A stretch of 62,941 nucleotides of DNA, counting the filler, from Nemertoderma westbladi (taxonomy: Eukaryota > Animalia > Xenacoelomorpha), in NCBI GenBank assembly GCA_032718475.1. It is 3 parts of 3 records of this genome, joined end to end, with 100 filler letters (N's around TTAATTAATTAA, not from the genome) between each part and the next. Parts side by side here need not be neighbours in the genome. Positions count along the whole stretch, not along the records: positions 1 to 22,971 come from JAUCBJ010007060.1; 2 more parts are not named here. One strand, written 5' to 3'. A program made the translations under genes and the position numbers. Within the stretch, counting starts at the first letter, position 1. Each line of letters begins with the position of its first letter. This document shows positions 1 through 48,160 of this stretch, piece after piece. The notes beneath the pieces are model-generated. The model made no database searches and was not told the origin of the DNA. It saw only the letters and a list, made by a program, of their open reading frames with translations.

Positions 1-897
1 GTTATGATTTTAGGACTTTATTATCAGTGTTTTAAGACCGTGTTGAAATAGCGAAATGTTTTCTGCCTTTTTATAAGAACATTAGTAGGCTAAATTATAG
101 AAAGCATAGCTATTATCTTACCAATTCCAAATCAACTCGATTCATATCACTTTATATCGATCTTAATTCAATGCAATCTAATTATATCTTAACCTACCGT
201 CATACTGCTTTTACTGTTTGTAATTTTGTATCAGTATAATTGGATGTTATTAGTTGAAGAATATCAATAATCAACCCACGTTTTCCCAATATCCTTGATA
301 CACTACAGGTTAGAGAGAAGGGTTATGTACAACAATTGCGACTTTATTATTGTGTTTGTAGTGAATCTAATGTTGTTTGACAGACACTACCTGAGTCCAG
401 TGCGTATCTCTTTATACCTGATCAAAGTCAGTAACTGTCGGCATATCAGTGAGCAGTGTTGTGCGTTACCGGTAGCGTGCGTGATTGTAAAGTGATTTGG
501 ATCTGATAATAAAGCATTCCTAAAGAATGCGCCCTATGCTTGAAATTTAAGCCATATCGTTGTGTGTAGTATCAGTCATAACTCTGTTTACATAGGTAGA
601 GCGCCACGTCCTAAAAGGAACTGCTAATATTTCCCGAAAGTGAATAATATTTGTCAGAGATTATATATTAGTAATCAATCGAATAATACAGTAGGCTTGA
701 CCGCAAATAAATTTAAGCCCACGAATCCAGTCTCCCGGTGTTATAAACGGGTCATTTGGACGCGCATGGACTGGCTTCGGCTAATGTTTTTGGTTTGTTT
801 TGTATTAAATCTTATCATCTTAAAAAAGGCAGATTATCAATAAAGACATATAAATTTCGGCAGGTTAAACTGCTGAAGGTCTATAAAAGCGCGTACA
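1..897 (+). mobile_element. LTR (copy A, 5' end outside window) of the exonuclease-carrying LTR family
   Basis: Aligns by eye with ~26220-27011 and ~54450-55278. Homology stops at the same point in all three copies, ...AAAGCGCG(T/A)ACA. AATAAA at 706-711. No TGG PBS follows, so this is a 3' or solo LTR. Confidence 0.8.
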
Positions 898-3970: not shown

Positions 3971-6900
3971 TGTCGTGACCTCATAACAAACTAGATGGCT
4001 CGCCCCAATATACTTGATGGACCTACCGTAGCTGGTTATGGGGTACCAGTACTTAACACTGCAGCACTGTAAGACAATATACTGATATTCTTAATTCTGT
4101 AATTATATGGAAGTAGCCAGATCGATTAACCTGTACTTAACACTGCAAGGCCTATCAGTATTCTGTATATAATTGAAACATAATATGGCGCAGTGTGCGG
4201 CTGGCCGGTATGGTCAGTTGAACTAACGTGGGAGTTAATTCACATAAGATTAACAACCGTAATGGCAACGTCGATAGAACCGGAGGACTGGCTGGATCTA
4301 AACGCAGCTCAGATAGAGCTACTGGAACGCCCCGCGTTAAAACAACATTGCAGCAACGCCGGGGTCCCGTTCGATCCAAAAACGCCATCAGCAACTCTCC
4401 GTAAACGACTAATAAAAGCGGTAAACGAGCAGGAAGATTCGAGCGAGGGGGAAAAACAAACTCCTCCGGATTGGACTCAAATCCTTCAGTACATGGAGCG
4501 TCAACGCGCAGCTGATCGGGCGGAAGAACAACAGCTCCGCCTTGAGGAGGAACGTCGACGCGAACAACGGGACGAGGAACGGGAGCTTCGATTACTGCAA
4601 CTCCTGCAACAACCAGGCGGACAGTCTGCAGGTCGCCGCGAGGATAACGCCCCGCGGAACAACGACGGTACAACCGCGGCCGCTAAACTAACAGCCAGAG
4701 CACCGGATAAACTCGAGGTAGATTATAGCTACCACCGTTTCGTGCGCTGGGAGAGGCAGTGGCTGAACTACGGCCGTATCGTCCACCTGGAACAAAAATC
4801 GAGGGAAGACCAGGTAGCTATATTTTTCAGCAACTGTTCCCCCGAGTTCCTCAACCGGATCCACCACCGACTAGATATTCCCGCAGATACGACAAAAACT
4901 CTAACAGAAATCATCGATGATATACGGCAATATCTCCGGGCAGAACGCAACATCGTTGTGGATCGGCACCAACTGGTACAACTTAAACAGGAACCAGGTC
5001 AGACTTTCGATGATTACTATGTCAGACTGCTCGAGTTGGCGCAAGATGCCGACCTAGACACGATGAACCGTGACGACTGGATAAACACCCTCATAGTTCG
5101 GGGAATTCAGGACGATGAAACAAGGGAGGAAATATTCGCTAAACGTCCTCCACTAACTCGGGAACAAATCCCAGACTTCTGCCGATTGCGCGAAGTTGCC
5201 GCTCGCGATAATAAACTCATTCGCGAGCAACGCATTAATGCTGTCCAGCATACAACCTCGGCCAATCAGTGGCGAGGTCGGAGTCGCTATAAGAAGAAGA
5301 GTAACTACCAGCGCTCTAAGTCCGCCATATCTACAGACAGGAACCGGGGTACCTCTAACTACAACGTACGGGAAACAATCCACCACGTGAAACAGCGGGG
5401 GGAATGCTTAAACTGCGGGGGTCAGTACCCCCACCCGAATAATAACCCCTGTAAAGCAACTAACATTGACTGTCATAAATGTGGTAGAAAGGGACATTTC
5501 GGATCAAAATGTCTCCAATCAAAATTTGGCGGAAAAACCAGCGGGGCCATAATAATCTCGAACATTAATAAACCGCTCATAGCCGTAGACTTCTTGAAAT
5601 CTGGCATATGGATGGGTAATAAAATGTGCGTGGCAGACACAGGTGCAGAAGTTGTGGTAGCGGGCGACGCAATCCGCACAGAATGGGGACTTAAAAATTG
5701 CAAACTCATCCCAGCAGACTCCCCACTCACAGCTGTTAATGGTAGCCCAGTTAAATGTTTGGGTAAACTGCACATGGAACTCTCCGCCGGCGATCGCACA
5801 TATAAGGACTGGGTCTATTGGTGTGTGGGTTTGGGCAATGTTGTATACTTGTCTCTCCAGGCTTGTAAAGGGCTTGGAATTGTGGAGGATAACTTCCCAA
5901 CACCACGGGAAATTAACGCAACCACCTCCACACCCAAACCTATAGAGCACTGTGAGACGACTGAGCCATATACCAACATTGCAATAACGGACACTGGTGG
6001 CACACAACCGCTCATCAGTGACACACAACCGCACATCAGTGGCGCACCTCTCCTCAACAGCGGCGCCCAAACGCCACTTATCGCACAACGCGCAACATAT
6101 GTGGCCACCATGAAACAAGGCATAGAGAATGAGGCGACCAAACTAAAACTCATGGAGGAATTTAAAGATGTCTTTGCCTCCAAGGGTCACCTCCTAACCA
6201 TGTCCGGCCCACCAATGAGCATCCAATTAGTGGACGGTGCGCAACCATTCTGCGTAAATGCGGCTCGACCCATACCCTTCCCTCTCCGTGAGAAAGTGCG
6301 CCAGGAACTGGCTCAGATGGAGGAGAAGGGTATCATAGAACGCATCGGGGACCGACCAACCGCCTGGTGCCATCCTATAGTTGTGTGCAACAAACCCAAC
6401 CGCCCTGGTGAAATTCGCATGACTGTGGACTTAACAAAACTTAACTCACAGGTCATGCGAACCATACACAACTCTAGGACGCCACACGATGTAGTCTCCG
6501 ACCGGACTAAGGGAACCTGCATATTCACCACGCTAGACGCAAAGTCTGGCTATTGGCAGGTTGCCTTAGACGAAGACTCACGTGATCTAACGACCTTCAT
6601 TACGCCGTGGGGCCGTTTTCGTTATTGCCGTGCCCCCATGGGCTTTATATCAGCTGGAGACAGCTATAACTTCAGGGGCGATATGGCACTCCAAGGCGTA
6701 ACCCAGGTCCATAAGATCGTCGATGATATACTCATCGAAGATACCAACATTCGGGAACACATCGAACGGGTCCGCACCATTCTCGAGAAGTGTCGTGCAG
6801 CCGGAATCACACTTCACCCAGAAAAATTTAACTTTGCTAAACCAAGCGTTAAGTTTGCTGGTTTCATTGTCACCGAGAATGGAACTGAGGTGGACCCAGG

Positions 6901-9234
6901 TAAAATTAAAGCAATCGCTGAATATCCTACCCCAAAGAACGTAACGGATCTTCGCAGTTTTATGGGGCTGGTTAATCAATTAGGACATTTTTCCAGCGAT
7001 ATCAGCACCACAGCGGCACCTCTGCGTGATCTGCTTCGAACAAGGAACGAGTTCCTATGGACTGCGAACCACCAACAAGCGTTCCAGCGGGTTAAAACCG
7101 CCCTCGTTCAACCACCTGTACTCGCTCCGTTCGACTTGAAAGCAGAAACAAGACTCGAAACGGACGCCAGTCGTCTCCATGGCTTTGGTTTTAACTTACT
7201 CCAACGACACGGGGACCACTTCAAACTTATAGCTTGTGGCAGCAGGTTCATCAGCGACCCGGAAACAAGGTATGCCACGATTGAACTGGAAGCTATTGCT
7301 ATCCGGTACGCCATTAACAAGTGCCGGATATATCTGTCTGGTCTACCGGAATTCACAGTGGTCACCGACCACCGCCCACTGGTCACTATATTTAATAAAT
7401 ACAGCGTTGACCAAGTGGACAATGGCAAACTGCAGCGTATAAAAGCGGATCTGCAGAGTTGCTACCAGTTCCGCGTAGAGTGGCAGAAGGGCAAGGCCCA
7501 TCGAATAGCTGATGGCCTGAGTCGTGCCCCCGTCGACAAACCGACGATCGATGATAGTCAACCCGAGGAAGAACCTATAAATATCGCAACAATCTGCGCA
7601 AACTTACCTCACACTACGACATCGATCAAGGATCCCATGTTGACCGAATTACATAACGCAGCATTGGGCGATATTGACTATATTGAACTCATCCGGCAAA
7701 TCCGGGATGACTTCCGGAATATAAACTCAGCCTCGCCGTATATTTGTCAATTTAAATCAATATCGGACAGTCTCGCAATCTCACCCGATAATCTGATAGT
7801 TTACGGGAACAGACTGGTTATCCCACAAACCTACCAGCATCAGGTTCTAGAACGACTACATGCCTCCCACCAAGGCATAACCAGAACCAAACAAAGGGCG
7901 CGGCAAACGGTTTACTGGCCAGGTATTGGTGGTGATATCGAGCGTACTATCCGACAGTGTACCAAGTGCCAGGAAATCCGGCCGAGTCTCCAGAAGGAGA
8001 CTATGCTATCAGAGGACATTCCAGGACGTCCATTTGTATCTGCCTCCGCCGATCTATTCTCCATAGGGGGGAAACACTATCTAGTGTATTCCGACCGACT
8101 GTCGGGATATCCCGAAGTCCATGAATGGAAACACGACCCAACATCACGGGATGTTGTATTCGCAATTCGTAGATGGTTCGTTAACCTCGGTGTACCGACA
8201 ACACTACGCACCGATGGTGGACCACAGTTCGACTCTGCGCACTTCAGGGACTTTTGTAAACGATGGGGGGTCAACTGGACTCCCAGTAGCCCACACTACC
8301 CGCAGTCCAATGGCCACGCCGAGTCAGCGGTGAAGGCTGTAAAACACCTGCTATTAAAGGTACCGAGGAACGACTCCAACTCCGACGAATTCCTCACTGG
8401 ACTTTTGGAGTTGAGGAACACTCCACGCGCTGATGGGCTGTCTCCTAATGAGACTGTCTTCGGACACATACTACGGTCGAAGGTTCCTGCCCATCACAGC
8501 GCCTACGCACAACATTGGCGGGAAACGGCGGATGAAACAGACAACCGTGCGGCCGAACTCCGGAACCGAAACATTGCTCACTATAACGAGACTTCGCGGG
8601 ACCACAAACCACTCAGGATCGGGATGGACGTCCGCATCCAGAGTACGGACCGACCGCAACGTTGGACTAAAACTGGAACGATCGTCAGTATCGGAAAAAA
8701 CCGGGATTACCACGTGAAGCTGCCATCTGGCAGAACATGGTGGAGAAACCGTCGATTCCTACGTCCTTTATATCCGGAAGTTGAACCAATAACACCCGAA
8801 CCAGCGAATGAACTGTCAAACAACGTTGGATCGCAAAAAAGTGCCATTTACCAGCCAAGTGACAACGAGTCCGAAACTGAAAGTAATTGGCAAGTTGTTG
8901 AACCACGCCGCAGTACACGCCACAAAAAGCCCGTGGTCCGGTTTGGGGATACGACCGTAAAACTATTCTCTTAACTCTTAAGACCATTGTAGAACTAATG
9001 ATCTCGGAGGAAAGGGGGGTGTCGTGACCTCATAACAAACTAGATGGCTCGCCCCAATATACTTGATGGACCTACCGTAGCTGGTTATGGGGTACCGGTA
9101 CTTAACACTGCAGCACTGTAAGACAATATACTGATATTCTTAATTCTGTAATTATATGGAAGTAGCCAGATCGATTAACCTGTACTTAACACTGCAAGGC
9201 CTATCAGTATTCTGTATATAATTGAAACATAATA
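3971..9234 (+). mobile_element. Full-length Ty3/Gypsy LTR retrotransposon (Mag-like), very recent insertion
   Basis: 215-bp LTRs at 3971-4185 and 9020-9234 with one mismatch seen. 5-bp TSD ACGTC (3966-3970, 9235-9239). PBS TGGCGCAG at 4186 (tRNA-Ser-like). PPT GGAGGAAAGGGGGG at 9006-9019. Single intact gag-pol ORF. Confidence 0.97.
4262..8974 (+). CDS. Gag-Pol polyprotein (Gag, two zinc knuckles, protease, RT, RNase H, integrase)
   Basis: First ATG at 4262, in the frame of the 1593-aa ORF. Motifs: CHKCGRKGHFGSKC knuckle, ADTGA protease, LDAKSGYWQ and IVDD in RT, TDAS...E...TDH RNase H, HASH...C..C zinc finger, and DLF...TDGG...E integrase. Order is RT-RH-IN. Confidence 0.97.
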   Translation: MATSIEPEDWLDLNAAQIELLERPALKQHCSNAGVPFDPKTPSATLRKRLIKAVNEQEDSSEGEKQTPPDWTQILQYMERQRAADRAEEQQLRLEEERRREQRDEERELRLLQLLQQPGGQSAGRREDNAPRNNDGTTAAAKLTARAPDKLEVDYSYHRFVRWERQWLNYGRIVHLEQKSREDQVAIFFSNCSPEFLNRIHHRLDIPADTTKTLTEIIDDIRQYLRAERNIVVDRHQLVQLKQEPGQTFDDYYVRLLELAQDADLDTMNRDDWINTLIVRGIQDDETREEIFAKRPPLTREQIPDFCRLREVAARDNKLIREQRINAVQHTTSANQWRGRSRYKKKSNYQRSKSAISTDRNRGTSNYNVRETIHHVKQRGECLNCGGQYPHPNNNPCKATNIDCHKCGRKGHFGSKCLQSKFGGKTSGAIIISNINKPLIAVDFLKSGIWMGNKMCVADTGAEVVVAGDAIRTEWGLKNCKLIPADSPLTAVNGSPVKCLGKLHMELSAGDRTYKDWVYWCVGLGNVVYLSLQACKGLGIVEDNFPTPREINATTSTPKPIEHCETTEPYTNIAITDTGGTQPLISDTQPHISGAPLLNSGAQTPLIAQRATYVATMKQGIENEATKLKLMEEFKDVFASKGHLLTMSGPPMSIQLVDGAQPFCVNAARPIPFPLREKVRQELAQMEEKGIIERIGDRPTAWCHPIVVCNKPNRPGEIRMTVDLTKLNSQVMRTIHNSRTPHDVVSDRTKGTCIFTTLDAKSGYWQVALDEDSRDLTTFITPWGRFRYCRAPMGFISAGDSYNFRGDMALQGVTQVHKIVDDILIEDTNIREHIERVRTILEKCRAAGITLHPEKFNFAKPSVKFAGFIVTENGTEVDPGKIKAIAEYPTPKNVTDLRSFMGLVNQLGHFSSDISTTAAPLRDLLRTRNEFLWTANHQQAFQRVKTALVQPPVLAPFDLKAETRLETDASRLHGFGFNLLQRHGDHFKLIACGSRFISDPETRYATIELEAIAIRYAINKCRIYLSGLPEFTVVTDHRPLVTIFNKYSVDQVDNGKLQRIKADLQSCYQFRVEWQKGKAHRIADGLSRAPVDKPTIDDSQPEEEPINIATICANLPHTTTSIKDPMLTELHNAALGDIDYIELIRQIRDDFRNINSASPYICQFKSISDSLAISPDNLIVYGNRLVIPQTYQHQVLERLHASHQGITRTKQRARQTVYWPGIGGDIERTIRQCTKCQEIRPSLQKETMLSEDIPGRPFVSASADLFSIGGKHYLVYSDRLSGYPEVHEWKHDPTSRDVVFAIRRWFVNLGVPTTLRTDGGPQFDSAHFRDFCKRWGVNWTPSSPHYPQSNGHAESAVKAVKHLLLKVPRNDSNSDEFLTGLLELRNTPRADGLSPNETVFGHILRSKVPAHHSAYAQHWRETADETDNRAAELRNRNIAHYNETSRDHKPLRIGMDVRIQSTDRPQRWTKTGTIVSIGKNRDYHVKLPSGRTWWRNRRFLRPLYPEVEPITPEPANELSNNVGSQKSAIYQPSDNESETESNWQVVEPRRSTRHKKPVVRFGDTTVKLFS

Positions 9235-10545: not shown

Positions 10546-13124
10546 ATATTCAGGGGGCATAGACGCTCTGAAAGCCATGAAAGAAACCCGGACGAGTGGT
10601 TACTATGATTCGAATCTTACACGGCAGGAGGAAAACATACAGACAAAACAATAGACATGGTATACACCTCAGATTCTATTTCTTCTCGAAGGAACAGGAG
10701 CGTTATTATATGGAAAAACGGAACTAACTTCACAAGTCATGATCTAATGGCTGCCTCATCAAAGACGAGTCTGGAAATAATTCAACAGAAGATAACATCG
10801 TTGGGATCTACAGGATTGGATGACCTCGGTTGATGGTTATTGCATAACGTATCAAGTGCTAACATAGGACAGCAGCAGATAATCGAGAAAGACTTGGAAG
10901 AAATACCATTGAAGAAACGAAACGTTATTGAAACTCCATATTACAATGTTAAGCATTCCTATTTGAGTGAACGAGGATATTAATAATTTTTATACTTACT
11001 TACAACGTTCCTATATAGTAAATGATACCTATGTAGAAGAAATCCTATATATAATGATAAGTTGTATAAATAAATAATGAAGCATTAATTACATAATATA
11101 TTGGACATTTATATGACTCTAAGTATGTTATTACTTTACAGAACTATAAAATAACTTTATCGAGTATCTCACACACCCGATGAAAGATATCCCTCTAGTG
11201 ACCTTTACAAGAGGAGTTCCCTTACAAAGCACTCGAAATGTTTATTACATGAACCAACCTGTTGCTGGAGTTTAGTCCAATCTACTTTACCCGACTTCTT
11301 TGTGTTGTTGAGGAGGCTCCTCGTAGTATTGTGGCCTCGTGTTTATATCTGGCTTTCATCTACGTCCTCATCCTCCACTGGTAGACTTCCTTGGTTTCTC
11401 CTCATCCAGCGGCGGTACTGTGGGCCTGCCCGCTGCCATTCCGTCGGGCCGCACGCCACATATATCCCCCTGTTGACCAGTGGTCCCAGTACTCACCACC
11501 TCATCTTCGCGTGTCAAGCTGCGTTCCACATCCCATACTGATCCACACTCCTCACCCCGACTGATCCACATCCCTCCTCCGATTGATACAGTGTAGCAGG
11601 CTGGTATGGTACCACTGTATCACCACCTCACATATGGTTGCATCCTTCTCGCTGGGGGTTCAAGGTGGAGTGCTCCTCCTCTTGGAACCCTGAGGTGTAT
11701 CAGCGAGTTCAGGTCCACTCATCATCATTGTCGCTTTAGCTGTAGTTTCCACTGTGCGGGATCATGTGTTGGTCTCGGGATCCCGACTGTTCGACTTTGT
11801 GAATGTGTTACCTAAGCTCTGCCATGGCTTGTACCTCGTAATGGACTGAGTGGCCGAGAGTCCGTTCTTGGTGCTAATATTAATGTCCTAATGTTGATTG
11901 CACGGTTCACCGGTAACTGTTATTAGGCCAAGAATGCAGTTAAGGCTGCATCTAGGTCCCTGAACAGGCAGTACTCTGTTAATCTACAGGAGCTAATAAA
12001 CCAACAGGTTGATGCCATCAATGATGCTGACGACAGCAGGCAATCATCCCAGGCATGGAAATCGATCAATTTGCTTACTGGGCGGCAAAGCCAACCAACC
12101 ACCACGGTTAAGGCTGAATCACCAGCCGATCGCCTCAATGGTTGGAAAGCCCACTTTGAAAAGCTCCTCAATAATGACAGGGTATTGCCTGATAACTTTA
12201 TAGAAGTAAAAGTGTCTGAGTCTGTACTCCCAGATATTCCCATTGGCGATATCTCCTTTGCACAAGTGAAGGCTGCTGCAAAGAGCATTAAGACTAATCA
12301 TGCCAGTGGAGTTGATGGTGTTCCCCCTGAGGTCTTTAAAATACCTGGGTGTTTAAAGCTCATCTATCCCATCATAGTAGACATGTACCGAACAACAAGA
12401 GTCCCACAAGAAATGAAAACAAATAAGTTGGTGCCAGTTCCCAAGAAGGGCAACCTAACACTCTATGGTTCTTTTCGGGAAATCTCATTGATCTCGATTG
12501 CTGTTAGCTTATCCAATTCCGCTAACACAAACCCATAGAGTGAGCCATAAAGCAATATTGGGAGCACGAGGTTGATTACCAATCAACCTCGTGTCAGCCC
12601 AGTAAACGGGGACAATAGGCCCCAAAGGAGACACACACAATAGGGGTCAGGGGCCAAACCCCTAACCGAGAGAGAACACAGGGAGTGAAGGGAAACACTC
12701 CAAAGGGTGCCAACAAGGGTATCAACCAATCAGAGGGGGGAAAGGCATCGATTGAGTAGCAATAAGGCCACCGTGCAATATAACCAGTAACCTGTAATCA
12801 TTCATTCAGTTTACTCAGTCAGATCAGTAGGGTGGAACGGGGACTTCTGTCACCGTCCGCTACCGCCATCATACTTATCTACCGGTGACTGTGCTGTACT
12901 ATACTACATATATATCAGACTATTATACCTTATACATATAACCGGACACCAGAACTATTTTACCTTTCACACAACGGCGGGGACGCGTGGATAGAAAACC
13001 CAACGGATAAACCGGGATCCGTAGATCCCGTCACAGTGACAGAACTAGATCCGCCCAGCTGCCCTGACAGAGATAGAATAGAGCTACCGTCCTAGCTAGC
13101 GACGACCAGCTACCAAAGACGACG

Positions 13125-16100
13125 ATGAGTCGAGAGAGAGGAACGACACCGCCGCGGACCCCGGACGACGATCTAACGATCCGCGAGGCCACGGCGAGAC
13201 GATACGAACCCACGACGCCGATCGATGCTACGCCGACCACGTCGACGCAGGTTGACGCCACGTCGACAACGAGCAACCCGACGAATCAAGATGTGGGGGG
13301 TCGTCTACAACCGGAGAGTGAGTCGAGGGAAGGAGACGAGAAGGGAGAAGAAGAGAAAGACGAGTCGACGCGGAGCGAGGGTCGACATACCGATGTCACC
13401 GGCCAGCCACAGGCCGAGGACGACGAACGGTCCACCGGAACGGCGACGGTGGGGCCGTCGGTACGACGTCGGACCCGGAGAGATGAGGGAGATGTCGGTA
13501 CCGATGTCGCCGGCCAGCCACAGGCCGAGGACGACGAACGGTCCACCGGAGGGGCGACGGTGGGACCGACGGTACGACGCCGGACACGGAAGGATAGAGG
13601 AGATGTCGGCAACGAGGATGTCGGAGGCGGCGACCGGCTCCGACGAGCCTACCTCGCGACCCGAGAGCGACTGAGAGAGGCCAAAGGAGGGGCGAAGATA
13701 GACAAGGTGAGACTGAGGAAACGACTAGGTGAGTCGAATAGACACTTTGATTACCTAATGCGTTTTGGGCAGAGAGAACTAGCCGAGGAGAGGGCGAGGG
13801 GAGTTGCCAACGAACTGATCGAACTATGGGAATGTGGGGGTATGGAACCTAGCGTAGTGTACATAGGGCCATACTTAGTCGATGCCCGGGGAGTAAAATT
13901 AGTGGGTTGGAAGAGACCTGAGGAGGGCGAATCCAAGGTTAACTCCGAGGATTCGGTCTCATCGGTCGGAGGAAGTTCCAAGAGGCGGGGGAAAGTTAGT
14001 GGGACGGAGGGGCGACGGGAGTCCGTCGCAACCGATAAGTCTGCTACATCCTCCGTAAAAGAAAGACGGGTGCGAGAGAGTAAACGCATGGCGTATAAAT
14101 TAGAAATGGTTGCGACAGAGCAGAATGAGTTAGAGAGACGATTGAGAGAGGGAACCGCATTCTCAGAGAAGGTAGGAGAGTTGGAGAGGGAGTGTAGAGA
14201 GAGGGCCGAGAAGTGTAGAGAGGGAGCCAAGGAGTGTAGAGAGCGAGAGATAGGAGTAGAGAGCGAGCCGGCGAGGCGGCTTGAGATGCTTGCGAGAGAG
14301 GCAGAGTTGGCCGAGCAGAATATGCGAGAGATGGGGATAGAGGGTGAGCGCATGCGGGATGATTTGCGTGCTCAGCTAGGGAGGCTAGCGCAATATCAAG
14401 CCAAATTAGACCAGCGCCGACTAGAACTGGCGCGGTTGGAGATATCAGAGAGTGAGCCCCCACTTACAGGCACCGGGCGAGAGAGCCAGAACTGGTGTAG
14501 CCGTACGGGCGGGGGGTGTAGTAGTAGTACGTTAGAGACAGTTAATGTTAATAGTACCGTAGTAAATAACCCTAATCCCTTTATTACAGGAAATATTTTA
14601 CCCGGTAGTAGTAATTTAAGTTTAAATTCAAATAATAACATTAATTCAAATATTCAGAATAATTCAAATAATACGAATAATAATTTAAATTTTGAAAATA
14701 ATAACAATCCTAATTTAAATAATTTAAATAATAATCCCGTTTCAAATTCTAATAATTTAATTGATTTAACAAATAATATTGGGAATGGTGCTATTGATAT
14801 GAGCGTGTCGGACGTGCATAACCCGACAGACGGTGGCCTGGTAGGCCACGTAGTTAGTAGGCAGGAAGTGGCAGGGCTGAGCCAACCCGACGGCGGCCTG
14901 GTAGGCCACGTAGTTGGTAGGCAGGGGGTAGCGGGGTTGAGCCAACCCGAAGTGGCCTGTGGGCCACGCAGTAGTAGAGAGAGAGGCGGGGGTGAATAGA
15001 CCCAGCCGTAGTAGAGACAGTGCGTCGACTAGAGAGGGGTGTAGAGACGAAGTAAGAGATAGTGAAGTTAGATGTGGCGAGTGGGGGGGGGCTACCGGCG
15101 CCCCACCACGTAAGACTAGTGGCGAGAGAGGGGGGGCAGAGAATGCCCCACAAGAGGGACGCAGAAGTGTAGTAAGAGATAGTGAAGTTAGAAGTGGCGG
15201 GTGGGGGGGGGCTACGGGCACCCCACCGCGAGAAGTTAGTAGAGAGAGAGGGGGGGCAGAGAGTGTCCCACAGCCGTCAGCGGATAATGCGCGGGCCGAA
15301 TCAGGTAAACCGCAACAACCGGCGACGGAGAGTAATAGGGGGATTGCGAGTATCCCCAGCGGCGTGCGATCGAGCAGAGAGAGGCAGGTTGACGTCGCGA
15401 GAGGGCAGGCGAAGCGTCGAGCCCGATCAGAAGAGAGAAGAAGAACAGTGGAGTTTAACCGGGAGGTCGACGAGAGATCTCACGAGCCGGAATACTACAC
15501 AGAAAAGAGAAGAAGAGAAGATAGTAGAAGAAGTGTCGCCACGAACGATAGCAGTGCGAGGACGGATAACGGACCGTCGACAGTAGAGATGGAGTCAGGG
15601 AGCCAGTGGGGTCGAACTTCGGGAGATTGCCGTCGCCCCGGAGAAACGCACCGCACGCCAAGAGAGGGGTACAGGAGGTACCAATACAAAGTCGAGAACA
15701 GGAGAGGGGATCGAAGAGAAGCTTCCCGACGGGATATAGCTGCCGATCGAGAGTGCAGTAGTCGCGGGGAGATTCGAGATTCGCGAAGAATAAACTTCGG
15801 TTCGGAAGGGCACATGCAGACTGCAGGACATACTGTAGGCCTTACTGCACATACTATTATAGGCCATGCTGGGAGAGATAGAGTAGGCGATGGGGTAGCG
15901 CGAACGACGGGATTAAACCCGGAAGTCGCGGAGTACATACCGGTAGGTAGGCGAGAGGTAGGTAGGCCTATATCGGTACAGCAGCATGACTATAATACAC
16001 AGGGACATAACATATATCCAGGGGAGGGGGGAGTTATTGGAGATAGACGTATGGGCCCCAATGTATTAACATCAACCCCAGTACCAAACATACCGGCTGG

Positions 16101-16821
16101 GGGGGGACAGGGTGACATTCCCCCATCACAATATCGACAATGTACCCCGATAGGAGCGAGAACATCGAACTCCCTGGACGAGAGCAGGTCGTGCGGACAG
16201 TCACCACCACACGCGGCCATACAGGGGACTACCAGTCCACAGTTAGCTGGTAGTAGGGCCACACCGTGGCAGGGACAGAAAGAAAATAACACCATAAATA
16301 AACACAATCCCAATATACCCAGTAGGCCGAGTCTAGACAACCAAAACATTAAATCGGTACATATAAACCTAAGCGCGATACGTGAAGGACTATACAGGAA
16401 ACGCTATAATCCAGGATTCCAATGTCAATTACATCGGGACGGAACCCATAAGACCAGGAGTTGCAAGTACTGGCAAGCGTTGCCCAAACGAGATCGTGTA
16501 GCCTACACAGACGCAAACGGACTATGTCATCGATGTGTGGTAAAAGGACACAGATCCGGAGAGTGTTGGAAAGGGAGAGGATATGAAAGGACTAAACCAG
16601 GGGCAGAGAAGCCCATTAGCAAACATAAGGGAGTCGGGAAAGTAGGAGGAGGCGTGTTGCATACACACGCAGGACGGACACAGTGCGAGGGGGCATTGCA
16701 CGGGCAGACACCGCGTATACCGAGGGACGAGCGGGGGTCGTCGAGGGCTCTTAATGCCAGCGCACATACGAAGGGGGAGGCCAGCAAAGGTAGCACCGAA
16801 GAGAGTGTGGCGAAGAGTTAG
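13125..16821 (+). CDS. Large Gag-like protein split by a frameshift near 14955 (ORFs 13125-14999 and 14959-16821)
   Basis: Coiled-coil, Asn-rich and internally repeated segments. The C-terminal CQLHRDGTHKTRSC...R......LCHRCVVKGHRSGEC matches BEL/Pao Gag knuckle spacing. The frameshift falls in the third copy of a 60-bp repeat (GLVGHVV). Confidence 0.75.
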
Positions 16822-16999
16822 AGGACGTATAGGAGGGCAGCAGGAGAGTGCCTACCGGAAGAAGGGGCACGTGAGAGTTTTTAGTCGTCCAAAGTTTTGG
16901 ACTGAGGGGGGTGGGAATGAGGGCGAGACGCCCTTCCCACGCACAAAATATAAAATAATTATTTAATTAAATAAAATAATTAAATAATAGAGTAGGTAG

Positions 17000-18560
17000 A
17001 AGTTAGGTAGTTAGGAGTTATTTAGGAGGTACGTAGTACCTAGAGTCAGAGTTAGTTAGTTAGTCAGTTAGCACTGATAGTTAGTGTTAGAGTAAGAGTT
17101 AGAGAGTCTCTCTACCGTTAGAGAGTAGAGTTAGTAGGTACGTAGTACCGTTAGAGATTAGTAGAGTTAGTAGGTACGTAGTACCTAGAGTTAGTTAGAG
17201 AGTTAGTAGGTACGTAGTACCTAGTTAGAGTTAGAGTTAGAAGGTACGTAGTACCTAGTTAGAGTTAGAGTTAGAAGGTACGTAGTACCGTTAGTTAGAG
17301 TTAGAGTTAGAGGGTACGTAAGTACCGCTAGTTAGTTAGAGTTAGAGGGTACGTAAGTACCGGTTAGAGAGTAAGAGTTAGAGGGTACGTAAGTACCGGC
17401 TAGAGAGTAGGAGTAGTAAGAGGGTACGTTGTACCGCTAGCTAGTAGAGAGAGCTAGAGTAGTAAGAGGGTACGTTGTACCGCTAGCTAGTAGAGAGAGC
17501 TAGAGTAGTAAGAGGGTACGTAGTACCGCTAGTTAGGGGTGTTAGTAGTAGCAGTAGAGGGTTGTGGGCACCGTAAGCGCCACGTAGTTAGAGTTAGTAG
17601 GGAATGCGCTGAACTTAGTGGGGCACGGGCGTGATGATGTGTTTGATGTAAGAGCAAGGTATGTTAATTAGGGTGGGTGCCGGGCACAAGAGGTGCCGGG
17701 CACAAAAAGAGTAGAGTAGTAGACGGGCACATAGGGTGCCAGGTAGTAGAGTTAGAGAGTTAGAGATAGAGTAGAGTAGTAGAGAAGGCACATAGGGTGC
17801 CAGGTAGTAGAGTTAGAGAGTTAGAGATAGTGTAGAGTAGTAGAGAGTGCACATAGGGTGCCAGTTAGTAGAGTTAGAAGGTGCCGGGCACAAGAGGTGC
17901 CGGGCACAAAAAGAGTTAGTAGAGTTAGAAGAGAGTTAGTAGAGTCAGTAGTAGTTCACATAATTAACGTACCCACTCTGCCGGCACTCAGAGCGTCACG
18001 TGTAGGCGATGAGACGTAAAGGGGATGTAGAGGAGTAGAGACGGGCACATAGGGTGCCAGAGAGTAGAAGAGTAGAGACGGGCACATAGGGTGCCAGGTA
18101 GTAAGTTAGAGAGGTAGTAGTGTAGTAGAGAGGGCACATAGGGTGCCAGGTAGTAGAGTAGAGCAGAGAGGGCACATAGGGTGCCAGGTAGTAGAGCTAG
18201 AGAGGTAGCTGAGTAGTAGAAGGGCACATAGGGTGCCAGATAGTAGAATGGTTGTGGGCACCGCAAGCGCCACGTAGTTAGAAGAGTGGAGTAGAGTTAG
18301 TAGAGCTAGTTAGTAGAGTTAGCAGAGCTAGTGGAGTAGAGTTAGTAGAGCTAGTTAGCAGAGTTGGTAGACTCAGAGGAGTCAAGTAGAGTTAGTAGAA
18401 GTAGAAAGTTAGTAGGAGTTAGTTAGACTTAGTAGAGAGTTAGAGTCAGTAGAAAGTTAGAGGCTCTCAGTTAGAGCTAGAAGTAGTAAGAGTTAGTAGT
18501 TAGCAGAGTTAGTTAGATAGTTAGAGTTAGTAAGCAGTAGGTAGATAGTATGATAGCACA
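17000..18560 (+). repeat. Array of short hairpins in C-poor (A/G/T) spacers inside the LTR element
   Basis: About 12 GGTAC-N3/4-GTACC units (17028-17527) and about 10 GGCAC-N5-GTGCC units (17682-18237), separated by (GAGTTA/GTA)-rich spacers. Confidence 0.9.
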
Positions 18561-21543
18561 GGGGTAGCATTAGAGATTAAAGCCTTAGGGAGTGACAAGA
18601 GAGTGGAGAGGTGATAGTGCGGAGTGCGAAGAGAGCGTGGGCGCAATTCAAGTGTGGGGGAGGAGAAGTGAGAGGAAGAGTGTGGGACGAGGAGGTCCGG
18701 GAGGATGAGAGAGTCGGAGTAGAGTGGTGAGAGTGTTGGGGAAACAAAAATTGTGTGAGAGAAGCGCACGATCGGCCCGACACGAGACGCCAGAGGGTAG
18801 TGACATCATACCCATAGGGAGCGGCCTGGAAAGCCGACTCCGAAAAAATATACCCACCCCACACCCGATAATAGATCGGGATCCAGCGGAATTGTAGCGC
18901 ACTTTGAGTTGGATGCTATCTTCTTACCGGGAAGATAGCATGGGGGGGAGTGTTAGCTTATCCAATTCCGCTAACACAAACCCATAGAGTGAGCCATAAA
19001 GCAATATTGGGAGCACGAGGTTGATTACCAATCAACCTCGTGTCAGCCCAGTAAACGGGGACAATAGGCCCCAAAGGAGACACACACAATAGGGGTCAGG
19101 GGCCAAACCCCTAACCGAGAGAGAACACAGGGAGTGAAGGGAAACACTCCAAAGGGTGCCAACAAGGGTATCAACCAATCAGAGGGGGGAAAGGCATCGA
19201 TTGAGTAGCAATAAGGCCACCGTGCAATATAACCAGTAACCTGTAATCATTCATTCAGTTTACTCAGTCAGATCAGTAGGGTGGAACGGGGACTTCTGTC
19301 ACCGTCCGCTACCGCCATCATACTTATCTACCGGTACTGTGCATACTATACTACATATATATCAGACTATTATACCTTATACATATAACCGGACACCAGA
19401 ACTCTTTTACCTTTCACACAACGGCGGGGACGCGTGGATAGAAAACCCAACGGATAAACCGGGATCCGTAGATCCCGTCACAATTGCTGCAATGCTATAC
19501 AATAGGATTCTATTAAATCGCATCAGGGATCCCATTGAGAGACTGCTCCGTGTAAATCAGAATGGGTTCCGTAAAGGTTGTGGGACCATGGAGCCCATTT
19601 TGGCACTTAGAAGGATAATTGAAGAGTTATCAAAAAAGAAAGACAGGCATGTGGCTGTTACCTTTGTTGACTTCTTCAAGGCCTTTGATTCAGTCTCTCG
19701 CTCACGTATGTTCAGCATACTTTCATTATATGGGATTCCTGATGAAATTATTGCAGCAATCAGATCAGTATACGATGGTTCGACAACATTTGTGTCTACT
19801 GTTGACGGTGACACAGAACCATTTGAAGTGTTATGGGGCGTCCTCCAAGGAGACACACTTGCACCATTCTTGTTCATTATTGTGGTTGACTATGTTCTAC
19901 GCATGTCCTTAGATCATCATAATGATGATGGGGTGATGATAACTCCACCTACTGGCTCCATAAGTCGAGGAAATCCTGCCAAGTACCTAACTGATCTAGA
20001 CTTTGCTGATGACTTAAGAGTACTCTCAGAATCATTAGAGGGAGCCCAACGGCTCCTCAGCTCATTAGAACATGATGCTTCTAGTGTTGGTCTTTTTATT
20101 AACTCCAGAAAGACCAAAATTTTGACAGTTAACTTTGAAAGTCCTCAGCAAGTCTCTGATCGGATGAGCATAAGCTCAAAGGATGGTATATTAGAGCATG
20201 TGGACGACTTCTGTTACCTGGGATCATGGATCCGGAAGTCGGGTGAGGACCTTCGAATACGTAAGGGAAAGGCATGGGCTGGGCAGCCTTGAATAGGCTT
20301 TCCAGGATTTGGAAGTCACCGGGAATTAATCAGAAACTTAAGGTCCGATTATTTAGAGCAGCAGTAGTTCCAGTACTCCTCTACGGGAGTCCACGCTGGG
20401 CTCTATCTGCTGAGGACACCCAATCTCTGGATGGCACATTCACAAGAATGCTACGCCGGGTTCATTGTGTCAAGTACAATGCACACATCTCCAACCAGAC
20501 ACTATATAACATTGGCGGTGTCTCATTGGTTCCCCCAAGGTTGACACTAGAACAAAGTCGCCTCCGCTTTGCAGGACGTTGCTTTTGCCGTGAGGACCAG
20601 CCAGTGCATAATCTTGTACTTTGGCAGCCTCATGGAGTGAATAAGCATGGTGGAAAGCCCATGACTTTCTTGAGACGCATCTTAAAGGACAGTGGCCTTA
20701 AAGATGCGGATGATCTAGCAAATGTCATGGGTAATAGGGAGTTGTGGCGGTGCAATTTTGTTGACAAGCCGGCACAGCATTCCTAAAAATGCAGCTGCAA
20801 TGCAGCATGCCAATCCTAGTAGTAGTAGTTATTAGGCCTAATGTAATAAGTTTGCTAGCACGGCAGTGGAAACTATTCATTCACCTACTGCCATCAGATA
20901 AATTGCCAACTGGCTAATAATGAGCACATACTGGTTTATATAGGTAATGAAATTGTGGTGAGTGAAATTATACATTGATCGAAAGCTCTCGCCCCGAGTA
21001 CGTAAACTATCGCTATCTTGAGGCTTATTTTACACTTATGCTTGCTTACGTGAATGCGTATTTTGTGTTCGCCACAACATGTTGTGTGTCAAAATCTCAA
21101 AGTGATTCGTATATTCCTAGCTTAGAATAAAATGTTAGCAAGTCAGCTGCAACTCGCAGACCAATCATCTCTTGAGGTGACCTCAGGCAGGAGGGTGTTG
21201 GTTATCTCTGCTTAAGTGCTGCCTGAGGAAGTATCACAACAAATACGAATCTGTCACACTAAACTACACGTTGGCTCTTATCTTGACTCTATCATCATGA
21301 GCATCTACGTGATGCAGACTGTCCTAACCCCTAAGCACGTGATCCTTCGCTATCTCGGGGTTTATTTTATGCTTGCGTGAATGCGCTAGGGGGAAAATGT
21401 CTGAAATAGGAATCCTTACACAATTTCGTTGTATATTATGCTTTTTAACTGATTCTTGGCAGATCTCTATTACACCAATGAATGCGTATTTGGGGAGGAC
21501 GTTGACCAGTATGCAGTTTTCCAGTCTGCTGGTAGGGGAGAAA

Positions 21544-23071: not shown

Positions 23072-23938
23072 TAACTCGAAGGATAGAACGTGAAAGAAGG
23101 TTGATACGGACAAATAAAGGAGAACCACTGGAGAAGAGACATGGGTTAATGTCCAGGGTCCATAATGTGAATAGTTTTCCCCGGGGCACGGGTGCTCGCG
23201 GGCGGTCTCTTTCGGGAGGCTGTAAATTTCTCTTCCTTCATCGTTTTCCTGTAATTATTGTGATCAGTGTCACAATTAAAAGACAAGAATGAATGATGAC
23301 GTGATGGAAAACTTGTCCATTGTGGTGTCTTATGGATACTACCCTATATCCTTCCTCCTCTTTACTCCCTTCATCGATCGACCAATCATAGTGGTATCGT
23401 GGTATGGATCATACCTCATCCTAATAAATCTCCTCACCTTCTTTTCCCAACGTTCTCGGAGCTTCGGGAAACGAATACTAAACCTCCCATCCCTTACTGT
23501 TCATCTGGATGCTAATATTGGTGTCCGCACCTCCTGTCAATGTCATATTCTGTTGATATTTATGATATCAGCTTCCACCCTCTCGTTCTTGATTAGATAA
23601 TCAACCACTTCCTAATTTCCTCAAGTCCACAACCGTGAAACAAGGACTGAAAGGACACGCGGATAGTTTGTGAACAACTGGTACCATTATGTGTCATAAA
23701 TCTGGTTGTTCACCTCCCTTAATGATTGGGGATATAAATCTTATGTAGAACAACTGAGGCAAACATATCATTGAACTGGTTGTTCCCTCATCGCACTGGG
23801 GATAAATTCAGTTGGAGATAGTCTTCGAATGTAACAATCCTCCTACTGAGATCGTATTTCGGAATATTTCTGAATACGACCTAGGTCTCCCCCTGCTCTC
23901 TACCACTACCATCAATGTCACTGTCGGAAAACATATTG

Positions 23939-25730
23939 GGCATACAACAGGAATATGGAGAACATTCCATACCCTTTCGTGGATACTCAGCTGATTGCTC
24001 CTTGGGCCGAAGGCCGAGGTTTCTTTCGCACTATGTATGCCAATACACCCAGCGGCATTACTAAAGTACAACGGACATCCATCGGACATCTTGCCTTTCA
24101 AGAATATGGTTGGAATTTCAAAGTTGGAAATCCTATAAATTACCAGCAAGTATATGGAGATCATTACTCTCGTTTATATTTTGATGGACCATTAACTGCG
24201 CCTGGTGCCGTATATAGCTTTATGAGTGTTCCCCTTCGCCCTTCCTTAGCTATATACACGATCTTTGAAAACGCAGCACTTACCGGTTGGCTGGCCGATG
24301 TGTGCAGTCGTACCATACGCGCTCACCCGTTAATACTTGGAACTAAACTCGCCAAGTTAGACGAACACAATAAGTTCATACGTTTCGAATGTTTCCGGCA
24401 CTTTCTGACTCCGTTCCGTAACGTCGATAGTCAGTTCAAGGATCGCGCGCTGACCAAGCTCAGTCTTAGAGACTCATCTGCGGAGAAACTGAGTAGCGCT
24501 GGATTTGCCGTGTTTCAAGACGTTTGTATACAGAACTCACATTCATCTGTTATACAAAGACCCCGAATACCTACAGGTTATTCTGTCATGGAAATACAGA
24601 CAGTGGGTCCACTTACGGAAACCGACGCACCCACTTCGTCTATGCAGCTGGAGGATGAACCAGTATGCTTGGAATCCGAAGCGATTCAACCTACGGCTTC
24701 TCGGAGCAGTGACAATGATTATGTCATAGAGTGGTATCAAGGTCCACAGCGTCTCACAGCGTACGATTATCGACACGCCAACTACGTTTCCCGAAAACGT
24801 TGTCGATTATGCGCATCGAGAGACCACTTCACTCCTCTAGACTCGAGCGTACCTTGTTCCTATTTCCTCGAACAACCGATGATGGAAATATATTGTGCCT
24901 ATTGCCGGCTTAATAACTCTCATATATTTGCCGTCTGCCCACAATTTATGACTCAATGTCACTATTGCCAACTTAAAGGACACAAAAGTTACAATTGTCC
25001 CTTTAATCGCGATTTAGAGAGTGTAGACGAGATGATCACCCTGCGATACATCCGAGCTTGGGAAGCGAACGCAGATTTACATTGCGAATCCAGACATCGC
25101 TATTACCCAGGACGAGCTTACGAGGGAGTTTACGCGTTCCATCCTTATCTATTCGCGTCGATTGAACAGAAAACACGCGTACCAAGTTACGAGTTAATGA
25201 AGCGTGTTGGTGAGTGTATTTCCACCAAGTTTGTCAGGAAATACCTTAGAAACGTTAACCCTAATGATATAACCACATATCACCTGATCAATTTTATCCG
25301 TCAGGACCCGGAGTATGGCGACATCTTTGTGAACTCGCATCCTGAACTACAGGAAATATCTCGGCGACCATATGAATATCGAACCCGAGAACGCGAACTG
25401 GAGAGAACCATTAAACCGAGAAAGTTCCTCACTACTCACGGTCCACCCACCGCTAGTGTCCAGACGACCCGTCAAGGACCCGTAGGAGCTGCTGTCCTGA
25501 GACGCGCTCTAAAGGCCGTTAGATCTCACTCCACTGAGGTTGATATTAATCAACCAGGTACTTCGACCGGCGGGTATACCGATCGTAACCCTGCACCTTC
25601 TGATGCAATTATATTGCACCCTTCGCCTAGGAGCTACAGCCCTCCTCGTAAAGTGGCTCGCCCCAAAGAGAAAAGGACTCTTGCTAGCCTCAAGAAACTG
25701 CGTAAACGCCGTCCGCGCAAGAAAGACTAA
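23939..25730 (+). CDS. 5'-truncated accessory ORF of LTR family (copy B): DEDDy-like 3'-5' exonuclease (C-terminal half), three CCHC knuckles, basic tail
   Basis: 591-aa ORF. FVDTQLIA...SIGHLAFQEYGWNFK...PLRPSLAIYTIFE resembles RNase D/WRN. Removing one A at 23952 restores an ExoII-like GIQQD. Knuckles: CRLCASRDH..C, CAYCRLNNSHIFAVC, CHYCQLKGHKSYNC. Ends KKLRKRRPRKKD. Paralog at 52286-53992. Confidence 0.75.
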
Positions 25731-25808
25731 CTGTTTAGAGTATTTTTATATTTTAGAAACTGTGATTTTGTATATTTTATAGACTTAAATCCCATTTTCT
25801 GGGAGCGG

Positions 25809-27011
25809 TGTAAAAGCTTTTGTGGGATAACTGATTCGTTGCCTTGTTGGCCAGTTCCCCCCCAGTCGCTAGAATACTCTCAAAAGGGATCTATAGCTAA
25901 AAATAGTGCAAGTTACCAGCTTATTGGCTGATTTGCTGTACGCAGGCATCTGGGCTCTGTTTAATCGGCCAACAAGCCTAGGGAGGTTGCGTCATAGCCT
26001 TGTTTTTGTATCTCCCAATAGAATTTGAGTTAGCCTTGATTTTGACCTATCACAGAGCTACTGAACTGAAATTTTCCTATCTCACTGCTCTTTCTCTGTG
26101 TTGAACGGGAGCTTCGTGGAATAAGGGAGTTGGTATCCTCGTATAGAGCAGTAGTCACGAGTTTTTCAAAGCCACGAAAGAACGGCTTTTTAGTGTTTTG
26201 TGCTTTCTGCTTTTTAGCTCAACACTAGTAGGTTTAATTATAAGGACATATATCCTTTAACTGACTAATTGTCTTAACTCAAAACAAACTGGCTTTTAAT
26301 CACTTGAATAACTGCTGCTAAAATTACCTGCTCAATCAATACCGTATACTGCTATTTGTTGTCGGTTATTCATTATATTTGTTGATGAATTATTATATTG
26401 GAATAACGAGAAATAACCCCGACACCCAATATTCTTGATATACCGAAGGTAAGAGAGAAAGGTTACCAATAACGATTGTGACTTATGTTAAAGTGGTTTG
26501 AAGTGAATCTAATGTTATTTGATAGACCCTACATGAGTCAGTCTGTGTTCCTTTTATATGTGACTAAAATCAGTGAAGATTGGCAGATTAGTGTGCAGTA
26601 TTGTGCAGCATTGTGTATGAGTGAGTCTGTTAAAGAAGCATTTCCTAAAGAATGCGCCATATATGTGAATTATAATTAAGCCATATCGTTGTGAGTAGTT
26701 TAAGTCATAACTCTGTTTATATAAATAAAGCGCCACGTCCTAAAGGAACTGTTAATATTCCCGAAGGTGAATAATATTGTCAGAGATTATATAATACTGT
26801 CAGTCGAATAATACATTAGGCTTACATAGCAATAAAATTAAACCGTCGAACCCAATCTCCCGGGAATATCCAGCGGGTGAATGGTCGCGCACAGATTGGT
26901 TTCGACTAGTGTAGTGAATCAAATACTTGTCATAGGCTAAAAAGCGATTTAATATCTAGAAGACATCTTAATTTGGCGGGTTAAACTGCCAAAGGTCTGA
27001 AAGCGCGAACA
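25809..27011 (+). mobile_element. 3' LTR (copy B), 1203 bp
   Basis: Begins TGTAAAAGCTTTT directly after the PPT-like GGGAGCGG and ends AAAGCGCGAACA (imperfect terminal inverted repeat). AATAAA at 26831-26836. Confidence 0.8.
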
Positions 27012-38490: not shown

Positions 38491-38544
38491 GATTGAAGGG
38501 GACAGTGTGAGTGTGGGAGGATTGAAGGGGGCTGTCGCCAACGA

Positions 38545-39030
38545 TCTTTCATATACAGCACATTGAAACTGTGGAATGAACTCCCTAATTATATTAGGGA
38601 AACCCAAAAATTCAAAAGTTTTTAAGATTAATTTACGAGAATACCAGCAGTACCGACCAACAATAATCGCTCGTTATTTTTCACTGGGATCATTTGCGAT
38701 AAACGGTCTGTTAGGCTACGGCGTTCTTGCTGCACTCTTAAGGGTGACTTGTTTAACAATCATCTCGCTAATAATTATTGCTGTTCCTGTGGTGACGACC
38801 ACGAAAACGCCAAACATTTATTTATCTTCTGTCCATTATATTATGTACACCGTCTTGTTCTGGAGAACTCTGAACTTCTGTTCTTTAGATTTGGCCCTAA
38901 CGTTTTCGATAGAAAATACCCTGTATGGCCCAAGCAAGGGTAACATTTCTGACCTACACACTCTTATTGAAGCCGTTGAGACTTTTATTACAGCCACCGG
39001 ACGTTTCAGTGATCTCGCGTACTAAAAATT
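38545..39030 (+). pseudogene. 3' end of a CR1/L2-group LINE ORF2
   Basis: SFIYSTLKLWNELP...; LKGDLFNNHLANNYCCSCGDDHENAKHLFIFCPLY (C-terminal zinc finger), with frameshifts. Confidence 0.75.
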
Positions 39031-41100: not shown

Positions 41101-41312
41101 TCTATAGGCCTAAACCTGGAACAATGCGACAAGGCTACTCTAAAGTTAGACTAGACTGGTTTGTGAGATTAACTTGCCAATACTAACTCAATACAATTTG
41201 CTTTCTTTGAATTCCTAATAATATATTTTAATCTTAATAATAAATTATTCAACATCAATTATTTGACTATTATTTATTATCTTGTCAATGTATAAGATTG
41301 CTAAAGACTAAC

Positions 41313-41444
41313 GAGCTAACTTTAGGAAGATCTGCCTTATAATATAAGGCAGATCTTCCTAAAGTTAGCTCTTCCTAAAGATAGCAATTAATTATAATAA
41401 TTCTAAAAATATAAGTTATATTTTTAGAATTATTATAATTAATT
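41313..41444. repeat. Two adjacent perfect 59-bp palindromes
   Basis: 41313-41371 and 41386-41444, each with 29-bp arms and a 1-nt loop. Confidence 0.95.
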
Positions 41445-45600: not shown

Positions 45601-45629
45601 CTATTTGAAGTTCGGATTCAAATGTTTCC

Positions 45630-47639: not shown

Positions 47640-48160
47640 AACAGTCTGACAGTACTGAACATTTGTGCGATGTTGCTCAAGTCAGTTGCCAACCCTGTAT
47701 CACCTCCTGCAGCACCCTTTGATGTCTGTTTCGACTTTTTCTCCTCACTCATTGCTGCTTTTCTAATCTCCCCGTGATAAATATCTTTCGTTTCTTCGGC
47801 AGTTTGACGAGTAACACGCTCCAGTTCTGCTACTTACCGCATAACCCACCTCTAGCTGTCTAGATGTTAAACATAAGCCTGTATACCCTTACCCTATAGA
47901 TCGTAGTGAATGCAGTCGGTGGGACCTCCATGTAATAAGCTATCTCATCATGCTCTTATCTGCATCAACCCGATCATATAAATAACGTAGTCTGTTGCTT
48001 ATACTTGGTTCATCATAATATAGGGACTGTATAATAAAATATAATAACAAAATATAATCACATCAGAACATCTGTACATCACCATTTGACTACCATAATA
48101 ATATCATCATATATATAGTTTAGTTATATTAGCAACAAATACTAACCACGTTCTACAGGC

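Follow-up and report, generated by a model that had tools for sequence, protein, structure and literature searches.

Three diverged copies of a repeat in the genome of Nemertoderma westbladi were found to end in about 840 bases that almost certainly adopt a real RNA structure, which is larger than first described and uncatalogued. The copies lie within one stretch of DNA of 62,941 nucleotides, filler included (the window), and comparison among them supports the view that this domain is a functional + strand RNA under selection. We hypothesize that these last 840 bases form a pseudoknotted, multi-helix + strand scaffold for tRNA-free, Tf1-like self-primed reverse transcription, a reading that we hold at slightly better than even chances.

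The repeat family and its setting

The eukaryotic DNA of the window is rich in repeats, among which are nested LTR elements as well as RTE-like LINEs. On its + strand, the structured RNA domain occupies positions 59-897 in copy A, whose repeat is truncated by the window start and which has its terminal ACA at 897, 26203-27011 in copy B and 54439-55278 in copy C, where the depth of run contigs stops at 55278. The putative 3' LTRs of copies B and C, both on the + strand, would extend over 25809-27011 (1203 nt, TGTA...AACA) and 54070-55278 (1209 nt, TGTA...TACA). Both start with TGTA after an identical 10-nt tract (25799-25808 and 54060-54069), in which only 7 of the 10 positions are purines, and A, B and C all end in ACA, which gives the TG...CA ends of an LTR. 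The two LTRs begin approximately 80 nt after the stop codon of an ORF common to both, and the first ~370 nt of LTR C are barely alignable with B (59% different). Taken together, the TGT...ACA ends, the common purine-rich tract and the point at which run depth abruptly ends suggest that the three repeats are 3' LTRs, and the continuation beyond the repeat that is common to the run contigs lends indirect support to the pairing of LTRs. Within the window no 5' LTR copy, target-site duplication or pol gene of this family was found, copies B and C being interrupted upstream by other elements and gaps, and the window contains no tRNA genes. A change in copy B at 27008 keeps the RNA pseudoknot pair described below and cuts the TGTA...TACA terminal inverted repeat to 3 bp, which suggests that pseudoknot pairing may outrank the symmetry of the LTR ends.

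The family is very abundant in the host, with a summed contig depth, which is not a copy number, of up to 2.5 million in run X1. Pattern scans for further copies returned seven loci in viral contigs with only 16-26 matching letters, judged to be chance (two other patterns gave 0 and 0), one locus in metagenome contigs that was unrelated outside the pattern, and none in genome contigs. A protein scan of viral contigs for relatives confirmed neither of its two candidates, and a covariance model of the 3' part of the domain retrieved nothing but its three training copies and, weakly, three further matches (E 0.04-0.56).

The ORF before LTR B (23874-25730, +) carries three Cys/His knuckle-like motifs and has sequence in common with copy C from 24071 onwards. 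Its counterpart before LTR C (51145-53992, +) consists of two frames, 51145-52446 and 52286-53992, with the frame change near a 14-nt near-tandem repeat (52321-52349). In copy C, a D-x-E motif lies in a predicted strand followed by a further strand and a helix, in a model with pLDDT under 40; a second AlphaFold model of the ORF reached a pLDDT of 29. Judged by eye only, this ORF may be a DEDDy-like exonuclease; no Pfam, PDB, Atlas or homolog match was obtained for it, nor a homolog for the ORF before LTR B, and Atlas matches under 0.9 point only to CCHC knuckles. The ORF of B adjoins a decayed antisense Gypsy-like RT/RNase H piece (23072-24070, -), recognized by eye, not recovered by tblastn and not attributable to the family, and the upstream end of the C ORF adjoins a Gypsy-type element (50160-50985, -) with a DUF7041 gag and a TGG primer site.

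Several other features of the window are recorded here. Two LTR elements, each with a TGG primer site and LTRs that are nearly identical, lie at 3971-9234 (+), where an unbroken gag-pol of 1596 aa is present, and at 44112-48160 (-). An uninterrupted frame of 337 aa at 56329-57342 (-) contains a fatty acid hydroxylase domain (PF04116, E 3e-27) and resembles alkylglycerol monooxygenase. Near-perfect inverted repeats, probably MITE-like, occur at 41309-41374, 57782-57822 and 43041-43843, the first with weak miRNA-family matches below gathering score, and a G-rich 22-nt minisatellite with extreme strand skew spans 36750-38670.

An extended covarying fold at the end of the putative LTR

In a preliminary description, made from the sequence alone, a covarying RNA of ~600 nt was placed in R/U5 at 262-897. 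Its letters were present at 8 of the 8 positions checked, and its view of a + strand functional RNA under selection was borne out; its limits were not, since pairing and conservation already begin near 59 and the size is ~840 nt. Taken alone, 262-897 has no significant folding z (-0.5, -1.2 and -0.2; 25 shuffles each), so that a range no more stable than its shuffles undersells the case for structure. The best-supported helices fall outside it: when all ungapped helices common to the three copies were listed, the long-range ones reaching beyond 262-897 ranked top.

In the extended fold, numbered here on copy A and on the + strand throughout, the 5' strand (59-117) engages five or six distant partners one after another. 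The crossing helix H0 (59-63 with 315-319) shows one double change among the copies and is followed by H1 (64-72 with 823-831), of 9 bp, with five double changes and none broken, by H3 (79-86 with 780-787), with one double and one single change, and by H3b (88-96 with 710-719), which has three double changes and is perfect over 9 bp in B and 10 bp in C and bulged in A. H2 (102-109 with 534-541), of 8 bp, has four double changes and one broken cell, and H2b (111-117 with 505-511), which overlaps the putative primer strand, has three double changes and two cells broken in C. Inner domain I (202-459), closed by H6 (202-208:453-459), contains H7 (227-234:295-302), H8 (311-314:411-414), H9 (340-344:393-397) and H10 (357-363:385-391), the last two crossed by H5 (329-334:371-376; two double changes). 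H11 (364-368:658-662; one double change) is also a crossing helix, which brings the crossing helices of the domain to at least four (H0, H5, H11 and the pseudoknot). Inner domain II (542-708), the most conserved sequence with 10-13% divergence at its centre, comprises H14 (548-553:694-699), hairpins at 559-582 and 582-601, a second CCTAAA hairpin and the AATATT stem (626-651). An AATAAA kept in all three copies (706 in A, 26831 in B and 55085 in C) lies between H14 and H3b, followed by H4 (722-779), the stem first described, with an inner CCCG/CGGG hairpin and the 5' strand of the pseudoknot (760-765). The terminal region (844-897) consists of a hairpin (856-877) on the stem 844-847:879-882, the 3' strand of the pseudoknot (889-894) and the final ACA. 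A candidate H12 (376-381:678-683) never varies and overlaps H5, and a helix 273-277:320-324 was dropped because its register is not the same in all copies and because it is broken by run variants at 54654 and 54704.

Most of the local pairings first described held on inspection. The stem 727-733:768-774 is paired in all three copies, with one double and two single changes and an invariant CGAA/TTCG pair, and the terminal hairpin has 8 bp with one double and two single changes and no broken pair. The loop-to-end pairing 760-765:889-894, which crosses that stem, is likewise paired in the three copies, with one double change, and is the strongest helix common to all of them (-13.8 kcal of stacking in the weakest copy). 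The CCTAAA hairpins and the AATATT stem do exist; having no double change, they add no evidence of covariation. AATATT is a palindrome, and the second CCTAAA hairpin in B and C needs 3 bp around TAAA because 4 bp would leave a loop of two bases. The proposed preference for the + strand was also recovered, since each copy folds 12-25 kcal better on it and the modelled helices hold 39 G-U against 4 A-C cells, an excess that is partly circular because the helices were chosen on that strand.

Covariation, which rests on three copies, and for the pseudoknot on one double change, was evaluated with and without a model. Among ungapped helices of at least 6 bp in the three copies, two had at least three double changes and three had at least two, when shuffle means were 0.01-0.02 and 0.26-0.28, respectively; none of 150 shuffles under a local-block null and none of 150 under a conservation-class null reached the observed covariation, the total of shared helices being unremarkable (35 vs 33 in shuffles). 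RNAalifold, unaided, recovered H1, H3, H3b, H2, H2b, H6-H10, H4 and the terminal stem. In the hand model, 16 of 128 pairs showed double changes, a count that favours the model in so far as it was drawn from the same three sequences; no shuffle of 500 was as good and sliding the model gave at most 4. That count enters H2b and the AGAC stem one column off, against the model, and omits H3b, H14, the first CCTAAA hairpin and the pseudoknot (MAFFT shifts the end of B by two columns). The extended domain gave folding z values of -2.2 (A), -3.8 (B) and -1.1 (C), with 12 shuffles each. In single-sequence folding, A and B form H1, H2 and H3 (pair probability 0.69-1.0), whereas of these C forms only H3, with H1, H2 and H6 at 0.0-0.2. 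Divergence between B and C is 47% (71/152) at fourfold-degenerate sites of the adjacent ORF and 59% in U3, compared with 21% in the core of the domain, 13% at the centre of the core and 22% in the 3' part. Since indels in the domain are mostly not multiples of three, coding does not explain this conservation.

Contigs from four runs (X1, X3, X4 and X5, of which X1 is possibly the window's own sample) gave very high summed depth over the repeat and an abrupt stop at 55278; the highest bin (54976-55007) falls in inner domain II, and high depth ceases at ~54495, where the clamped 5' strand has its 3' end. Among the run variants listed (the best 40 of 174 and the best 40 of 45), where an absent partner is not evidence, H0 changes on both sides (54440 with 54701), as does H11 (54750 with 55038), and common variants restore three mismatches of copy C (54835, 54961 and 55073). 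Several listed variants break a pair singly, their partners lying outside the stretch or not being among those listed. The first base of the pseudoknot is T in 46, 47, 85 and 19% of the depth of the four runs, and its 3' partner, three bases from the end, has no variant among the best 40 of 45; two of the listed contigs end exactly one base before this partner, which fits a branch there and proves nothing.

A candidate self-primer and the proposed mechanism

Beyond the repeat, loose ends of run contigs at 55278 were obtained from 20 contigs in X1 (agreement 0.66), 4 in X4 (0.84) and 2 in X5 (0.72); X3 had none there among those listed. The three loose ends have a common beginning and none starts with TGG, an indirect sign, from three of the four runs, that a tRNA-type TGG site is lacking; a second loose end of X5, at 55279, is unrelated sequence. 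By eye, and on the majority line, the first 10 letters of the X1 loose end are the exact complement of 54489-54498 (+), which would be the end of the self-primer in copy C, and the X4 and X5 loose ends are complementary at 10 of the first 11 letters and at the first 7. A complement within the LTR was found by chance for 0.2% of 20,000 random 10-mers of the window, in which the nearest match to the complement of 54489-54498 has one mismatch and is unrelated. The candidate corresponding places are 116-121 in A and 26260-26265 in B, and neither copy has the primer letters of C. The complementary stretch closes the clamped 5' strand on its 3' side and overlaps the covarying helix H2b; a further match of 7 letters (54474-54480) competes with H3b. 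Because the contigs behind the majority lines are mixed and X1 could be the sample of the window itself, this evidence is strong but indirect, and it points to a site after the LTR that is complementary to the LTR's own transcript, as is described for self-primed elements.

A parallel is present in the window in element D (12502-19482, +), a separate intact LTR element with LTRs 99% identical, a 5-bp target duplication and no TGG site. Nine bases directly after its 5' LTR (13036-13044) are the exact complement of 12845-12853 (chance 0.26%), 13050-13072 pairs with 12814-12836, and the full duplex amounts to -35 kcal; the fold has a z of -3.0, and 0 of 200 shuffles were equally good. This priming-type layout spans only ~270 nt. 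The LTR of D has no sequence match to the A/B/C family, and its primer-type site opens like that of the family and differs at letter 3, each LTR matching its own letter. The other LTR elements with a readable junction have TGG sites in 3 of 3 cases. Element D is a self-priming candidate in its own right, and, of the roles that had been listed for the domain, that of a priming scaffold gains support from it and from the complementarity in the run contigs. The element sits inside an RTE-like LINE and carries two gag-like ORFs and ~2 kb of purine-rich repeats; no pol was seen in it, a homolog search found none, and its knuckle pattern is presumably BEL/Pao-like. Downstream of a TATA/initiator-like pair, the first ~45 nt of D fold back on its leader, and at 13030-13040 a perfect palindrome of 5 bp, centred on a single base and made up of the LTR end and the primer site, competes with the primer duplex in folding.

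In the self-priming reading, transcription would start just before 59 and the first ~60 nt of the RNA would be clamped to its body by H0, H1, H3, H3b and H2. This strand would pair through its end with the site directly after the 5' LTR, and the pseudoknot 760-765:889-894 would fasten the LTR's final bases at a distance of three nucleotides from it; with the LTR end so placed, the primer 3' end would face the final ACA and copying would start at it. The primer might be freed from the variable linker by RNase H, as in Tf1; alternatively, the linker may be cut and then trimmed 3'-5' if the ORF is an exonuclease, or the primer 3' end may arise by RNA catalysis. More speculatively, H2b could conceal the primer until the primer site is transcribed and so act as a switch, under which a 3' LTR, having no primer site, would stay shut; equally speculative is termination of the RNA after the AATAAA at 706, which would give an R of about 600 nt. 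Given the 11-nt primer of Tf1 and the ~270 nt of D, priming does not explain 840 nt or the invariant core, and a second role of the domain, such as translation past the 8 upstream ATGs, export or packaging, is likely.

The fold may be mainly a translation element for gag (an IRES or shunt), with the self-complementarity incidental, for the leader would exceed 840 nt and hold 8 ATGs (copy A, downstream of 59), which makes it hard to scan, and a terminal pseudoknot ahead of the start site is typical of viral IRESs. However, this would leave the primer-like match and the clamp on the 5' strand unaccounted for, no Rfam IRES matched, and the strands of the pseudoknot are separated by 123 nt in which H3, H1 and a hairpin intervene, when dicistrovirus PKI is compact and unlike 760-765:889-894; we consider this unlikely. 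An export, packaging or dimerisation signal, the 'pseudoknot' then joining two genomes, would suit the repeated invariant CCTAAA loops, which could bind protein, and the adjacent ORF with its knuckle-like motifs, and covariation is blind to whether pairing occurs within one molecule or between two. Yet neither strand of the pseudoknot is palindromic and the missing tRNA site would go unexplained, so this reading is quite unlikely. The conserved sequence could instead reflect promoter or integrase signals in the DNA, with pairings arising by chance among three related copies: many helices are invariant and the model came from the same sequences. This is most improbable in view of shuffle tests that are independent of the model, five double changes in the 9 bp of H1 across ~750 nt, and run changes that are two-sided in H0 and H11 or repair mismatches of copy C. 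As to host tRNAs, the 7 letters after the LTR of D are probably complementary to the tRNA-Asp anticodon loop. A tRNA half cut in that loop could then prime, the fold merely presenting the site. This has very little to recommend it, because the LTR of D itself matches 9 letters and ~19 more pairs, and because letter 3 of the A/B/C family would mismatch the tRNA and is matched by its own LTR; half-tRNA priming does exist in copia lineages (PMC6317226).

The fold could instead be a ribozyme, or the RNA component of a particle with the element's knuckle protein (an RNP), whose cut behind the primer would generate a 3'-OH; a self-primer requires a cut. The size of the domain, its at least four crossing helices and its invariant unpaired stretches resemble those of large ribozymes, and by eye there are group I P/R/S-like words and a hairpin like group II domain V that has an AC bulge and is preceded by AGC. 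Nevertheless, no Rfam match was obtained, narrow searches to E 10 included, exact group I R or S, domain V, twister and HDV patterns are absent from the + strand, and the one hammerhead-like word lies on the - strand of copy C only. The R-like word pairs upstream (H11) and the partner order of H2/H2b is nested, both unlike group I/II topology; moreover, no such domain accompanies the same priming layout in element D, and the cutting in Tf1 is done by RNase H (PMC7175516). We therefore regard this reading as very unlikely, and it is quite improbable that the LTR encodes a new large ribozyme or RNP enzyme (~840 nt, at least four pseudoknots) that cuts and positions its own primer. In the class-by-class search, a group I intron or lariat-capping ribozyme was rejected for want of an Rfam match and of exact R/S words and because the R-like word covaries in H11, and a group II intron because no domain V pattern was found and the GTGYG words lie more than 280 nt from the putative primer end. 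Small self-cleaving ribozymes leave a cyclic phosphate, which is unable to prime; for these, Rfam and simple patterns (hammerhead, HDV-like, twister) were negative on the + strand, from which variants could escape. Rfam searches gave seven matches for the whole window to E 5, none of them in the three copies, and 5, 1 and 1 matches in narrow scans of the copies to E 10, all below gathering score and none shared. No acceptable match was thus obtained for the window or for any copy, in agreement with the first impression that this is no known RNA family; the ribozyme listed there among possible roles found no described motif or family to sustain it.

Known systems and significance

Self-priming as favoured here has its precedent in Tf1, whose first 11 bases pair with the primer site and are released by RNase H between bases 11 and 12 (PMC7175516); for other lineages it has been predicted (PMC6317226, PMC4600332). 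The likeness to Tf1/Tf2/Tj1 and to the Tf1/sushi group of Ty3/gypsy elements lies in the missing tRNA site and in a sequence following the 5' LTR and complementary to the LTR interior (PMC7175516, PMC4600332, PMC6317226). As in Tf1, RNA structure would be needed to join primer and site. The primer of Tf1 is its first 11 bases, whereas the candidate primer here would end ~60 nt into the RNA, the helices implying ~50 nt of RNA ahead of the match, and would be held down by five further helices, with ~780 nt of knotted RNA between it and its site. The family is likened to Tf1 by its priming layout.

In Ty1, the 5' end of the RNA is held in a long-range pseudoknot needed for starting reverse transcription, but the element is tRNA-primed and the knot is a single helix (1-7 with 264-270) that reaches into gag (PMC4974528). 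A packaging role was not demonstrable for it, in contrast to its role in reverse transcription, which argues against reading the present fold as a packaging signal (PMC4974528). The A/B/C fold is contained within the LTR and has about three times the length of that of Ty1. The MusD transport element (MTE) lies outside the LTR. It is also a retrotransposon RNA with long-range kissing and pseudoknot pairings, but an export signal (PMC3362945), and no sequence or family match to A/B/C was found. Juno and Vesta of bdelloid rotifers have an additional ORF ahead of the 3' LTR, which may encode a DEDDy exonuclease of the RNase D type (PMC5408684); it is a candidate counterpart of the A/B/C ORF, and 'priming' is absent from the main text of that paper. 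Retrozymes reportedly carry a structured RNA, the hammerhead, inside the LTR (PMC4918200), while the + strand of A/B/C has no hammerhead core. The open-access literature yielded no LTR RNA of such size or kind, subscription journals being outside its scope. Cer7 reportedly has a self-encoded primer, on which nothing relevant was found in that literature.

Self-priming has been shown only for Tf1 and predicted elsewhere, with short primers and small structures, and an 840-nt covarying LTR fold far exceeds the retrotransposon RNA elements that we found described in the open-access literature. Should the invariant core be catalytic, it would represent a new class of large ribozyme, and, if the ribozyme reading were true, a retroelement that makes its own primer by RNA catalysis. 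Since the family is very abundant in the host, a deep alignment should be readily obtained, and with it a well-determined structure. The fold would give a testable link among tRNA-free priming, long R/U5 regions and the exonuclease-like ORF3s of LTR elements, the latter two so far unexplained.
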